From a phage: 64,000 bases of DNA. Positions 26,156-32,618 of the stretch are shown here, one piece after another. The translations under genes and the position numbers were made by a program. The notes beneath the pieces were generated by a model. The model was not told the origin of the DNA and did not search any database. It saw only the letters and a list, made by a program, of their open reading frames with translations. The stretch lies in the sequence record PZ445517.1. One strand, written 5' to 3'. The stretch's first letter is position 1, and each line of letters starts with the position of its first letter.

Positions 26156-27271
26156 ATGGAAAAATTTATGGCAGAGTTTGGACAAGGATATGTCCAAACG
26201 CCATTTTTATCGGAAAGTAATTCAGTAAGATATAAAATAAGCATAGCGGGTTCTTGTCCGCTTTCTACAGCAGGACCATATGTTAAATTTCAGGATAATC
26301 CTATCGGAAGCCAAACGTTCGACGCAGGTCTTCATTTAAGAGTTTTTGACCCTTCCACAGGAGCATTAGTTGATAGTAAGTCATATGCTTTTTCTACTTC
26401 AAATAATACTACATCAGCTGCTTTTGTTAGTTTCATGAATTCTTTGTTAAACAATAGACTTGTTGCTATATTAACTAGCGGAAAGGTTAATTTTCCTCCT
26501 GAAGTGGTATCTTGGTTAAGGGGAGCAGGAACTTCAGTTTTTCCATCAGATTCCGTATTGTCAAGATTTGACGTATCATATGCTGCTTTTTATACTTCTT
26601 CTAAAAGAGCTATTGCATTAGAGCATGTTAAACTAAGTAATAGAAAAAGCACAGATGATTATCAAACTATTTTAGATGTTGTATTTGATAGTTTAGAAGA
26701 CGTTGGAGCTACGGGATTTCCTAAAAGAACATATGAAAGTGTCGAGCAATTCATGTCAGCGGTTGGTGGAACTAATAACGAAATTGCGCGATTGCCAACT
26801 TCAGCTGCTATAAGTAAACTTTCTGACTATAATTTAATTCCTGGTGATGTTCTTTATCTTAAAGCACAGTTATATGCTGATGCTGATTTACTTGATCTTG
26901 GAACTACAAATATATCCATTCGTTTTTATGATGCATCAAATGGATATATTTCTTCAACACAGGCTGAGTTTACTGGACAAGCTGGATCTTGGGAATTAAA
27001 GGAAGATTATGTAGTTGTTCCTGAAAATGCAGTCGGATTTACTATATATGCGCAGAGAACTGCTCAAGCTGGTCAAGGCGGAATGAGGAATTTAAGCTTT
27101 TCTGAAGTATCAAGAAATGGCGGCATTTCAAAACCTGCCGAATTTGGCGTCAACGGTATTCGCGTTAATTATGTCTGTGAATCGGCTTCACCTCCAGATA
27201 TAATGGTACTTCCTACACAAGCCTCTTCTAAAACTGGCAAAGTGTTTGGGCAAGAATTTAGAGAAGTTTAA
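26156..27271 (+). CDS. 35: long tail fibre hinge connector gp35
   Basis: 371 aa; follows 34 with 8-nt gap; terminator hairpin after stop. Confidence 0.9.
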   Translation: MEKFMAEFGQGYVQTPFLSESNSVRYKISIAGSCPLSTAGPYVKFQDNPIGSQTFDAGLHLRVFDPSTGALVDSKSYAFSTSNNTTSAAFVSFMNSLLNNRLVAILTSGKVNFPPEVVSWLRGAGTSVFPSDSVLSRFDVSYAAFYTSSKRAIALEHVKLSNRKSTDDYQTILDVVFDSLEDVGATGFPKRTYESVEQFMSAVGGTNNEIARLPTSAAISKLSDYNLIPGDVLYLKAQLYADADLLDLGTTNISIRFYDASNGYISSTQAEFTGQAGSWELKEDYVVVPENAVGFTIYAQRTAQAGQGGMRNLSFSEVSRNGGISKPAEFGVNGIRVNYVCESASPPDIMVLPTQASSKTGKVFGQEFREV

Positions 27272-28031: not shown

Positions 28032-31000
28032 ATGGCTACTTTAAAACAAATACAATTTAAAAGAAGCAAAACTGCAGGTCAACTTCCTGCTGCTTCAGTA
28101 TTAGCCGAAGGTGAATTGGCTATTAATTTAAAAGATAAAACAATTTTCACAAAAGATGACTCAGGCAATGTTATAGAATTAGGTTTAAAATATGGAGGAA
28201 CAATTGATGGTTCTTTAACTGTTAATGGAAATATAACTGGAACTTTAATTGGAAATTCTAGCACAGCTACTAAATTGCAAACACCTAGGAAAATTAATGG
28301 TATATCCTTTGACGGGTCAAAAGATATCACGCTAACTCCATCTGACATAAATGTCAATAGCACAACGTTTATAAAAAATAACGGCGAATTACCTACTAAT
28401 GCTAATTTAGATACGTATGGGCCCATTGAAGAATATCTTGGTGTTTGGTCGAAATCTACTTCAGTAAATGCGCAACCAGCAAATAAATTCCCAGAAGAAA
28501 ATGCCGTAGGTGTATTAGAAGTATTTGTGGCAGGCCAATTTGCTGGCACTCAGCGTTATACTGTTCGGTCTGGTAACGTTTATATTCGTTCCTTATCTGC
28601 TAAATGGAATGGCGTAGATGGTCCGTGGGGTGTATGGCGTAATGTTCAAGCGTCAACTCGTCCACTTTCACAAACGATTGATCTTGATAGCTTGGGAGAA
28701 TTAGAACATTGTGGCTTATGGCGAAACAGTTCAAGCGCAATCGCATCATTTGATCGCCATTATCCAGAAGAAGGATCAGCCGCACAAGGATTTTTAGAAA
28801 TATTTGAAGGTGGTTTATACACGAGAACGCAGCGATATACTACCCGCATGGGTATGGTTTATACTCGTTGTCTCGCTGCCGCATGGGATGCTAGCGCACC
28901 TAAGTGGGAGGAATGGAAGCAGGTTGGTCATGGCACACCAGCGACTTTCTATGACGGAGATCTGAATGATTTTAAAACTCCTGGGTTATATAATATTTTA
29001 GGCACTGATGCCGTTATTAACTGTCCTACCGGCGAAGGTTTGCCGACTGTTATTGTTGGTTTGCTGGAAGTTAAACAACGTGCTTCTGGCGGTGCTATTT
29101 TCCAAAAATTTACTACTGCCGGAACGGGTGCAACTACTCGCGATCGTATTTTTGAGCGTGCATATACTGGTGGTGTGTGGGGTGCATGGAACGAAGTATA
29201 TACGTCCTATTCTATGCCGATCACTCTGGGTATTGGTGGTGTTAAATCTCAATTAGCGGAGCTAGATTGGAACACATTTGATTTTGTTCCTGGCAGTATG
29301 TTTAGCGTTCCCTTGAACAAAATAAAGAATATGCCAGCAAATATGGATTGGGGCACGATTGATGGAAACCTGGTTATGTTTTCCGTTGGACCAAGCGAGA
29401 GTGACGGAACAGGTCGAACAGTTCAATTATGGCGTGGCAGAGCAACACAATCAGACTATCGTTATTTTGTTGTTCGTATTACTGGACCTTTGGCGAATAG
29501 AACTTGTACAGCTCGACGCGTTGTTCTTGAAGATGGTCGCCACACATGGACAGCTCAACAAGATTTTAATGGTGCTGTTAACTTCGGTGCTCCTACCAAT
29601 TTTAACTCTACTGTTAACCTTAATAACACTACCACTTTTAAAACAGAAGTTAAATTCCGCTCATCTAATGCATTCCGTATGTATGCCGGAAAATTTGGTA
29701 CAATTTTCCGTAATGATGGAGAGAGTCTTTATATTCTTTCCACCGACGAAGATGATCAAGCTGGAAACTTTAATACAAATAGACCTTTCCGTTATGAATT
29801 AAGAACTGGTGATGTTACTTTGGGTGGTGCTGTTGGTGCTAACGTTTTAATTTTAAAACGTGATTCTCTCACCGCATTTTTTGGCGGTGATATTAACATG
29901 AAAGGCACGATGACTTTTGACGCCGGGCGTTTAGGATCACGAGATTATTTTAAATTTAACCATTGGGGTGATAGTAATAATGCTCGTGATAACATCATCC
30001 AGTTAGAAGATAGTCAAGGCGCCCATTTTTCCACTGAACGTACTTTAGCGACAGGTGCAATTAAAACTCGTTTCTTTGGCGAAACATTCACTGATGGTAC
30101 ATTATACCTAAATCAGATGAATAATAGCTCTGAACGATTCTCTATTAATAATTGGGGAAATTCAGAAGTTGGTCGCGCGGCAGTGATGGAAGTCAGTGAT
30201 TCCAAAGGTTATCACTTCTATACGGAACGCAGGACAGATAACAGTTTGAATTTTGATGTTGCTGGCAATTTTACTGCGCATGGACCTTCCGGAATAACCA
30301 TCAAAAACTCAACTGGTGCACGACATATCTGGTTTAGAGATGATAGCGATGCAGAAAAGGCTGTTATCTGGGCTACAGATGAGGGTATTTTACATATTCG
30401 CAATAATCATGGGGGTTCATTTAGTCATCACTTCCAGGGTGCAATGATTAAAGCGGGAGAGCGTGTTCCATATAATGGTGAATACGCTCTTATCCGTGGT
30501 GATATTTCAGGTGGTGCATGGGTAGACTGGCGAGAGCGTCCGGCTGGATTGTTGGTAGACTGTCAGGACTCACGAAATCAAGCATATAACATTTGGAAAG
30601 CTACTCATTGGGGCGAACAGCACCTTGCGGCGATGGGTGTTCATGCTGGCGGTGGTAATCCTCATGTTGTATTGCATGTGGCTGGGAATGATTATGCATT
30701 TGCATTTAACGGTGATTTTACTGCTGGTGCTGCTGTATATTGTAACGACGTTTATATTCGTTCTGACCGTCGTCTGAAAATTAATGTTGAAGACTACGAA
30801 GAGAATGCGGTGGATAAGGTAAATAAACTCAAAGTTAAAACCTATGATAAAGTTAAATCTCTTTCTGACCGCGAAGTTATCGGCCATGAGATTGGTATTA
30901 TCGCACAGGATTTGCAAGAAGTATTACCGGAAGCTGTTAGCACTTCTAGTGTCGGATCTCAGGATAACCCAGAAGAAATTTTAACAATTTCTAACTCTGC

Positions 31001-31115
31001 TGTGAACGCGCTTTTAATTAAGGCTATTCAGGAAATGAGTGAAGAAATTAAAGAATTGAAAACGCCTCTCTTTACTAAAATTGCTCGCAAAATTAGTAAA
31101 TATTTTAAATTCTAA
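28032..31115 (+). CDS. 37: long tail fibre distal subunit gp37 with C-terminal intramolecular chaperone domain
   Basis: 1027 aa; N-terminus shares motif with gp36; C-terminal about 117 aa carries SDRRLK ... [15 protein letters not shown] chaperone/autocleavage motifs. Confidence 0.95.
30762..31112 (+). other. intramolecular chaperone / autoproteolytic (peptidase S74-like) domain within gp37
   Basis: Ser911 at 30762 begins [13 protein letters not shown]...; motifs typical of tail-fibre/endosialidase C-terminal chaperone domains. Confidence 0.7.
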
Positions 31116-31151
31116 CAACAAGGGGGAAATGCCCCCTTTGGAGTATAAATT

Positions 31152-31931
31152 ATGGCAGTAGTTGGAGTTCCTGGCTGGATTGGAAGTTCAGCCGTAAATG
31201 AAACGGGTCAGCGCTGGATGAGTCAAGCAGCTGGTCAATTAAGATTGGGTGTTCCTTGCTGGATGAGTCAATTTGCAGGTCGCTCAAGAGAAATTATTCA
31301 TACACTTGGAGCAGACCATAACTTCAATGGTCAATGGTTCCGAGATAGATGTTTTGAGGCAGGTAGTACACCTATAGTGTTTAATATCACTGGAGATTTA
31401 GTATCATATTCTAAAGATGTTCCTTTATTCTTCATGTATGGAGATACACCGAATGAATATGTTCAGTTGAATATACACGGCGTAGCGATGTATGGCCGTG
31501 GCGGTAATGGCGGTAGCAATAGTCCTGGTTCAGCTGGCGGTCATTGTATTCAAAACGATATTGGTGGGAGACTAAGAATTAATAATGGCGGAGCTATTGC
31601 TGGAGGTGGCGGCGGCGGAGGCGGCGGCAACAGGGGTAGACTATCCTTTGGCGGCGGAGGCGGTCGTCCATTTGGCGCTGGTGGGTCTTCCTCTCATATG
31701 AGTGCTGGTGCAACCTCCGGCACTATTTACGCTCCGGGTGCAGGATCTGTCGGTGAGGGGTCTCTTAGTGCATATACAGGCGGGAATGGCGGTGAAGTTG
31801 GCTCCGCAGGAGGTAGATGTAATACTCACGGTACCGGTACAGAATATGACGGCGGTGCTGCTGGTTATGCCGTCATAGGGTCTACGCCGACATGGCAAAA
31901 CGTTGGAGCAATATATGGTCCAAGAGTATAA
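31152..31931 (+). CDS. 38: gp38 receptor-recognising adhesin (T2-type, glycine-rich motifs)
   Basis: 259 aa; poly-Gly motifs ([23 protein letters not shown]) separating variable segments; longer than T4 gp38 chaperone (183 aa). Confidence 0.85.
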
Positions 31932-31961: not shown

Positions 31962-32618
31962 ATGGCAGCACCTAGAATATCATTTTCGCCCTCTGATATT
32001 CTGTTGGGTGTTCTAGATCGCTTGTTCAAAGATAACGCTACCGGGAAAGTTCTTGCTTCCCGGGTAGCTGTCGTAATTCTTTTGTTTATAATGGCGATTG
32101 TTTGGTATAGGGGAGATAGTTTCTTTGAGTACTATAAGCAATCAAAGTATGAAACATACAGTGAAATTATTGAAAAGGAAAGAAATGCACGCTTTGAATC
32201 TGTCGTCCTGGAACAACTCCAGATAGTTCACATATCATCTGAGGCAGACTTTAGTGCGGTGTATTCTTTCCGCCCTAAAAACTTAAACTATTTTGTTGAT
32301 ATTATAGCATACGAAGGAAAATTACCTTCAACAATAAGTGAAAAATCACTTGGAGAATATCCTGTTGATAAAACTATGGATGAATATACAGTTCATTTAA
32401 ATGGACGTCATTATTATTCCGACTCAAAATTTGCTTTTTTACCAACTAAAAAGCCTACTCCCGAAATAAATTACATGTACAGTTGTCCATATTTCAATTT
32501 GGATAATATCTATGCTGGAACAATAACCATGTACTGGTATAGAAATGATCATATAAGTAATGACCGCCTTGAATCAATATGTTCTCAGGCGGCCAGAATA
32601 TTAGGAAGGGCTAAATAA
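31962..32618 (+). CDS. t: holin T
   Basis: 218 aa with single TM helix (VVILLFIMAIVWY) and large periplasmic domain; matches T4 T. Confidence 0.9.
   Translation: MAAPRISFSPSDILLGVLDRLFKDNATGKVLASRVAVVILLFIMAIVWYRGDSFFEYYKQSKYETYSEIIEKERNARFESVVLEQLQIVHISSEADFSAVYSFRPKNLNYFVDIIAYEGKLPSTISEKSLGEYPVDKTMDEYTVHLNGRHYYSDSKFAFLPTKKPTPEINYMYSCPYFNLDNIYAGTITMYWYRNDHISNDRLESICSQAARILGRAK

Follow-up and report, generated by a model that had tools for sequence, protein, structure and literature searches.

The gp38 of phage T2, which uses FadL/OmpF as receptors, is the namesake of a family of receptor-binding adhesins. In phage T4, by comparison, gp38 is a chaperone and not a virion protein, and the receptor-binding tip is located on T4 gp37 itself (PMC3157838). 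For the description of the adhesins, the naming after Trojet was adopted here, in which glycine-rich motifs (GRM) are distinguished from variable segments (HVS), with T6 Q167/M168 (HVS2) and T6 G208 (HVS3) serving as anchors (PMC3157838). Among the OmpA-dependent adhesins, those of FL12, FL18 and FL20 are described as “type 2” adhesins with a narrow host range, for which contacts of R172, A189 and A253 with OmpA were proposed in silico (Lutz et al. 2025, PMC12032242), and M1, FL08 and AV119 served in our comparison as the classical or type 1 OmpA adhesins. A preprint reports OmpA and LPS HepI as receptors of EV240, that is, Escherichia phage T4_ev240 with 166954 bp, determined by RB-TnSeq; in addition, the EV240 gp38 brought about a complete switch to OmpA when placed in the Tsx phage CM8, and the exchange in the CM8 recombinant was limited to HVS2 onwards (bioRxiv 10.64898/2026.04.02.716166).

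The DNA analysed here, referred to as the window, is a stretch of 64,000 nucleotides (sequence record PZ445517.1), which as a whole matches the genome of T4_ev240 (LR597657.1). Beyond the last position of LR597657.1, the match continues with the first positions of this record, still at 100% identity, so that the window follows the genome of T4_ev240 as a circle; the crossing lies at about 40664/40665, and the window from 40665 onwards corresponds to LR597657.1 positions 1-23336 with the rIIA, topoisomerase and helicase genes. The tail fibre genes are arranged in the order 34-35-36-37-38-t, and the gp38 of T4_ev240 is labelled in GenBank only as “Phage tail fibers”. The product of gene 38 is a receptor-binding adhesin of the T2/T6 gp38 family and thus of a well-known kind. 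Its segments and the neighbouring features are listed below in window coordinates.

28032..31115 (+), gene 37, distal long-tail-fibre subunit of 1027 aa, whose processed tip carries gp38 (ORF; Pfam Gp34_trimer and Peptidase_S74)
30762..31112 (+), C-terminal S74 intramolecular chaperone domain of gp37, aa 911-1027 (Pfam PF13884, aa 911-969, E=1.2e-14)
31119..31140 (+), intergenic hairpin of high G+C content, 3' of gene 37 and just 5' of the gene 38 RBS (RNAfold, -14.7 kcal/mol)
31152..31931 (+), gene 38, gp38 long-tail-fibre tip adhesin (ORF; Pfam; 100% nucleotide identity to LR597657.1 157442-158221, the gene of Escherichia phage T4_ev240)
31152..31292 (+), N-terminal attachment domain of the T6 type, aa 1-47, probably docking on the gp37 tip (Gp38_N, aa 1-42)
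31293..31493 (+), conserved beta-helix core, aa 48-114 (pLDDT 93-98; near-identical in T6-, M1-, Ac3- and FL12-type proteins)
31494..31514 (+), GRM1, GRGGNGG, aa 115-121 (G115, R116, G117, G118 and G120 invariant in 69 sequences)
31515..31601 (+), HVS1, aa 122-150 (by alignment the same as in the T6 and M1 types, unlike the FL08/AV119 type)
31602..31628 (+), GRM2, nine Gly codons, aa 151-159 (the first GGN tract of the initial annotation)
31611..31663 (+), span of a 14-nt perfect direct repeat, GGCGGCGGAGGCGG, bracketing HVS2, with in-frame copies at 31611-31624 and 31650-31663 at a distance of 39 nt (repeat search)
31629..31649 (+), HVS2, NRGRLSF, aa 160-166 (alignment; 5 residues shorter than the Tsx-type YYSPFSQMRLTF)
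31650..31676 (+), GRM3, GGGGGRPFG, aa 167-175 (G167-G171, P173 and G175 invariant in 69 sequences)
31677..31778 (+), HVS3, aa 176-209 (over aa 179-209, 30/31 residues identical to FL12 and 14/31 to RB14)
31779..31793 (+), GRM4, GGNGG, aa 210-214 (a DNA repeat of GRM1, 14/15 nt identical)
31794..31850 (+), HVS4, aa 215-233 (alignment)
31851..31928 (+), GRM5, GGAAG, aa 234-238, followed by the conserved C-terminal strand segment, aa 239-259 (alignments, model)
31962..32618 (+), gene t (holin), downstream of gene 38 (Pfam Phage_holin_T, E=1e-116)

The open reading frame of gene 38 (31152..31931, plus strand) starts with ATG, is preceded by GGAG 8 nt upstream, and encodes 259 amino acids plus the stop codon. 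Glycine accounts for 64 of the 259 residues (25%), 50 of which are found within the last 144 residues, and in its 3' part the gene has a G+C content of 55% as opposed to 36% window-wide. The initial annotation, which had described a 259-aa glycine-rich reading frame at this position, is confirmed by the ORF call and the glycine content. It had also placed two GGN tracts at 31602-31627 and 31651-31667; these exist in substance, but their ends were 1-3 nt off and the second was out of frame. The first tract comprises aa 151-159 at nt 31602-31628 with the codons GGA GGT GGC GGC GGC GGA GGC GGC GGC, and the second aa 167-171 at nt 31650-31664 with the codons GGC GGC GGA GGC GGT. Tandem Repeats Finder reported nothing beyond a short and imperfect (GGC)7 array, located at 31608-31628, with 88% matches and a score of 35. 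An alignment of the window's gp38 with 68 homologues, 69 sequences in total, and separate alignments with the named phages were used to delimit the segments. In the 68-homologue alignment, five conserved glycine-rich motifs separate four variable segments, in line with the poly-glycine motifs between variable segments postulated earlier, and the glycines G152-G156 and G167-G171 are invariant in 69/69 sequences.

The family assignment is based on two Pfam matches, GP38 (PF05268) at aa 47-259 with E=8.9e-70 and 235 bits and Gp38_N (PF21721) at aa 1-42 with E=9.4e-21 and 74 bits, the cut-off being 25 in both cases. Sequence matches to solved structures were found for PP01 gp38 (PDB 9v85, E=1.2e-77) and S16 gp38 (6f45_D, E=1.7e-53, residues 5-256). 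An AlphaFold2 model of gp38 based on the 69-sequence alignment reached a mean pLDDT of 86.9, and a Foldseek search with this model returned the same two proteins, 9v85_C with E=1.3e-25 and an rmsd of 2.1 and 6f45_D with E=1.1e-21, with a probability of 1.00 and TM values of 0.75-0.87; beyond 9v85 and 6f45 the search gave no significant match, the next having E=3. According to the model, gp38 consists of the beta-helix and polyglycine-II sandwich known from PDB 6F45 and 9V85. The dips in pLDDT coincide with the blocks containing HVS2, HVS3 and HVS4. The attachment domain also showed low pLDDT when modelled alone with AlphaFold2, which is to be expected because this segment needs gp37. Its sequence is identical to that of RB14 and NBG2 in 47/47 positions and to that of FL12 in 32/47. 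Within the same domain, a 32-nt direct repeat with 78% identity is present at 31213-31244 and 31258-31289, 45 nt apart, which suggests an old internal duplication.

Gene 37 lies directly upstream, and its S74 domain resembles that of T2 gp37, whereas T4 gp37 lacks this domain and contains Collar and Phage_fiber domains. Self-cleavage of gp37 is predicted between R910 and S911 (...NDVYIR/SDRRLK), and the pattern ...VYIR/SD.R.K is kept in 15/15 gp37 sequences compared, T2 included. Since the gp37 lengths are unequal, the tips were compared by anchoring the sequences on the SD.R.K site. Despite near-identical gp38 sequences, gp37 is strongly mosaic, with 1027 aa here, 1080 aa in NBG2 and 982 aa in G2540-3, and gp38 proteins with the T6-type N-terminus occur together with at least three different gp37 sequences in the 70 residues preceding the cleavage site. 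However different upstream, the gp37 tips all end in DVYIR/SD, and the gp37/gp38 “lock and key” may therefore be limited to the few residues at the end. The stem of the hairpin between genes 37 and 38 is kept, with changed sequence, in FL12/T2, BF15/ST2, HMD-9, UKE3-1 and T4: the stems read GGGGG/CCCCC here, GAGGGC/GCCCTC in T2 and FL12 and GGGCC/GGCCC in BF15, and T4 has a CUUCGG loop. A scan for sigma-70 promoters around gene 38, with a tool that excludes T4 late promoters, gave no sites above the level of shuffled sequence. Further upstream, in gene 35 (26156-27271), aa 58-112 of gp35 match the Pfam family ILEI (interleukin-like EMT inducer / FAM3) with 31.3 bits at a cut-off of 27.

By full-length comparison, the gp38 has its nearest classical relatives in RB14 (87% identity) and T6 (83%), both of which are Tsx phages. 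A different order results when the specificity half alone (aa 151 to the end) is compared: NBG2 shows 100% identity, G2540-3 99%, FL12 95-96%, FL20 88%, Ac3 87-88% and FL18 84%, and the T6-like RB phages about 75%. The FL08/AV119-type gp38 aligns with the gp38 described here in the N-terminal part only. Judged by its sequence, the protein belongs to the “type 2” OmpA-specific subgroup, clustering with the HVS of FL12, FL18 and FL20 and not with those of the Tsx, OmpF, OmpC or type 1 OmpA adhesins. Of the OmpA contacts proposed for this subgroup, R172 and A253 are present, and position 189 is a serine, as it is in NBG2, if the 259-aa numbering is assumed for these positions. The OmpA receptor predicted in this way agrees with the experiment of the preprint. 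The initial annotation had regarded this locus as the primary host-range determinant, and its role as host-range determinant is supported by the OmpA receptor and by the transfer of specificity with the swapped gp38, both reported in the preprint for this phage. With the receptor mapping and the gp38 swap, the checks proposed in that annotation have therefore already been carried out on this phage. Host range also depends on gp12 and LPS, which for T4_ev240 concerns HepI.

The comparison along the gene reveals two parts with different affinities. Within the first 449 nt, RB14 differs at 15 nucleotides, and beyond 31601 at 109 alignment columns. With FL12 the distribution is reversed: 53 differences fall into the initial 153 nt and 31 into the 627 nt that follow. 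The silent changes, counted as changed codons with an unchanged amino acid, follow the same pattern: relative to RB14 they amount to 6-11% before aa 150 and to 45-57% from GRM3 through HVS4, and relative to FL12 to 50% in aa 1-47 and to 3-12% in most later segments. This parallel rise of the silent changes points to a different ancestry of the blocks and not to loop selection alone. One and the same set of HVS is found on at least four attachment types, the T6 type (here, NBG2, FL20), the T2 type (FL12), Ac3/FL18 and BF15/ST2, and it spans three genera. On this comparison of sequences, gene 38 is a mosaic: its attachment end and core are of the T6 type, and from HVS2 onwards it has an FL12/Ac3-like half of the OmpA type 2. 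As the region upstream of the nine-glycine tract is almost identical, a crossover anywhere in 450 nt gives the same product, and the tract is therefore needed neither for the mosaic nor for the recombinant of the preprint, in which the exchange is limited to “HVS2 onwards”. A related observation concerns Escherichia phage FL20, a Krischvirus, in which a region (L003:201-1197) matches the window at 30893-31900, the gp38 gene itself with about 90% DNA identity. Upstream, the match continues for about 170-260 nt and thereby reaches the 3' end of gene 37 with the S74 domain, although gene 37 lies elsewhere in the genus Krischvirus. The FL20 stretch looks like what is left of a cassette that came from a Tequatrovirus.

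A natural change in length at HVS2 was found in the Yersinia phage vB_YepM_ZN18 (MN716856.1, identical to IMGVR_UViG_2974787500_000001; L006:3763-3864), which has a T6-like gp38. The length of this protein, 277 aa, results from a perfect tandem duplication of 51 nt, which comprises five Gly codons together with HVS2 (YYSPFSQMRLTF). The two tracts flanking the duplication have 14/15 nt in common, and the junction lies inside the GGN tracts. In IMG/VR, the ZN18 junction was found in a single instance, and in the phage collection searched the 277-aa gene was seen only in the two ZN18 records, in a search that was not designed for duplications. The host of ZN18 is Y. pseudotuberculosis, and changes in HVS2 and HVS3 are known to open the Yersinia host range (PMC3157838).

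Three other readings of the locus have to be weighed against these data. That gene 38 might encode a tail-fibre assembly chaperone of the T4 type, absent from the virion and leaving receptor binding to gp37, is suggested by its position, as it occupies the slot of T4 gene 38 between genes 37 and t. The proteins themselves, however, show no similarity: the BLASTP alignment between T4 gp38 and the gp38 described here has E=1.8 over 22 residues, which also answers the initial annotation where it let its adhesin reading depend on the absence of homology confined to the T4 chaperone, and the lengths are 183 and 259 aa. T4 gp38 has no Pfam family match, as opposed to GP38 with E=9e-70 here; the gp37 of the window has a predicted self-cleaving S74 domain like that of T2, and the tip domains found in T4 gp37, Collar and Phage_fiber, are missing from it; and the choice of receptor moves with a swapped gp38, as described in the preprint. 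The chaperone identity was rejected on account of the absent sequence similarity, the different Pfam content and the different gp37 domains, and its probability is practically nil. Family, fold and gene context instead bear out a T2-like receptor-binding adhesin distinct from the 183-aa T4 chaperone, as initially annotated. The label “T2-type” given there holds for the family but not for a close kinship with T2 itself, since T6, M1 and Ac3 are the closest classical relatives. From the likeness to T6, in turn, one could conclude that the adhesin binds Tsx, considering the whole-protein identities of 83% to T6 and 87% to RB14 and the near-identity of the N-terminal 150 residues. This similarity is nevertheless confined to the attachment end and the core and falls to about 75% from HVS2 on, where, compared with the Tsx types, the gp38 described here lacks 5 residues in HVS2 and has 4 additional ones in HVS3. 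The nearest specificity domains are those of OmpA-dependent phages, and OmpA is the receptor identified for T4_ev240 by RB-TnSeq (bioRxiv 10.64898/2026.04.02.716166). A Tsx receptor, ruled out by the specificity-half search and the published receptor, is thus very improbable, and OmpA remains the preferred receptor.

The third reading concerns the GGN tracts, which could represent a dedicated diversity device in which recombination or slippage regularly reshuffles or resizes the variable segments; exchanges at conserved motifs were reported by Tetart 1998, and recombination at the GGN tracts is an old hypothesis from that work (as cited in PMC3157838). In its favour, HVS2 is bracketed by the perfect 14-nt direct repeat, the 51-nt duplication of ZN18 has its junction in the tracts, and the divergence from the Tsx types starts at the nine-glycine tract. 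Two statistical results point in the same direction, both from related sequences and to be taken only as a hint: 3/11 differences from NBG2 fall within the 27-nt tract (binomial P=0.006), and the third-position diversity is 0.41 in the tract codons compared to 0.28 in invariant Gly codons outside the tracts (P=0.013). The close relatives in IMG/VR comprise 13 loci, too few for population statistics, and 14 GenBank phage loci were used instead. The length of the first tract, on the other hand, is nine glycines in 18/18 aligned sequences (the window and 17 close relatives), and nine in about 53 and eight in about 37 of 120 homologue clusters, among which no internal repeats of at least 8 residues were found. 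A junction of the ZN18 type occurs once in IMG/VR, and the equivalent duplication junction for the window's own HVS2 type is absent from it. Moreover, 0/14 of the chimeras selected by Trojet 2011 were exchanged between GRM1 and GRM5, and all GRM or HVS deletions tested there were non-viable (PMC3157838). In the protein, the tract glycines are invariant, as a structural requirement would lead one to expect. At constant tract length, the GGN codons differ at their third positions in nearly all close relatives; G2540-3, for example, has GGA followed by (GGC)8 in the first tract, and FL12 has (GGC)8 followed by GGT. We regard the dedicated device as unlikely. The earlier proposal that the tracts are substrates for recombination is upheld in part, by the 14-nt repeat and the ZN18 duplication, but not by the published exchanges, none of which lies inside GRM1-GRM5, and slippage, which had been proposed alongside, finds no support in the constant nine glycines. 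In our reading, the glycines are kept mainly for the polyglycine-II sandwich, the DNA repeats are a by-product that occasionally mediates rearrangement, and slippage altering the tract length is selected against. A more specific proposal sees HVS2 as a hotspot of in-frame duplication or loss on account of the GGCGGCGGAGGCGG repeats and the corresponding repeats in relatives, with standing variants in loop length and with a ZN18 duplication selected in a host shift; this we consider quite doubtful.

Our preferred reading is thus an adhesin whose glycine-rich motifs serve its fold. Taken jointly, it is highly probable that gene 38 of T4_ev240 encodes a monomeric adhesin capping the distal tip of the long tail fibre, with the mosaic origin described above and the following mechanism; no finding speaks against the identification. 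Going by its domain and the cleavage motif, gp37 would trimerise via its own C-terminal S74 chaperone domain, which would then cut itself off. The T6-type N-terminal 47 residues of gp38 would dock on the gp37 tip exposed in this way, by analogy with the S16 structure, and the glycine-rich motifs form the polyglycine-II sandwich that holds the HVS1-4 loops at the very tip, as the agreement of the model with the solved structures shows. The loops bind E. coli OmpA according to the experiment on T4_ev240 in the preprint. The GGN tracts would exist for the glycine-requiring fold and, as a side effect, would provide short repeats permitting rare unequal or homologous exchange. As gp38 sets the outer-membrane protein used by a T-even-like phage, the variable loops predict the receptor, and reading them can guide phage engineering and cocktail design. 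For the gene described here, it is already known that the phage was sequenced, its receptor mapped and its gp38 used for retargeting; our analysis adds the exact positions of the motifs and loops within the window, the junctions of the mosaic, the figures for the GGN tracts and the natural HVS2 duplication in a Yersinia phage.

In comparison with the known systems, the gp38 of T4, located in the same slot between genes 37 and t, is unrelated in sequence. T2 gp38 belongs to the same family and has the same gene position, and its gp37 likewise carries an S74 domain; it shows 51% identity over residues 1-147 with another attachment type, and its specificity half gave no BLASTP alignment with the gp38 described here. 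The gp38 proteins of S16 (PDB 6F45) and PP01 (PDB 9V85), with 44% and 64-66% identity, respectively, share the attachment domain, the beta-helix and the polyglycine-II sandwich with protruding loops, but their loops differ, their first tract has 8 Gly instead of 9, and their receptor is OmpC. T6 and RB14 gp38 have the attachment domain, the core, HVS1 and all GRMs in common with the protein of the window, but their HVS2 is YYSPFSQMRLTF as opposed to NRGRLSF, their HVS3 is 4 residues shorter, HVS4 differs at 3-4 residues, and their receptor is Tsx and not OmpA. The closest agreement is found with the type 2 gp38 proteins of FL12, FL20 and FL18, and also of NBG2, G2540-3, BF15 and Ac3, which have the same HVS2-4 set, the same length of 259 aa and the same tract lengths; in the specificity half, FL12 and the gp38 described here differ by the five substitutions S165V, S189A, N212S, T228A and D233N.
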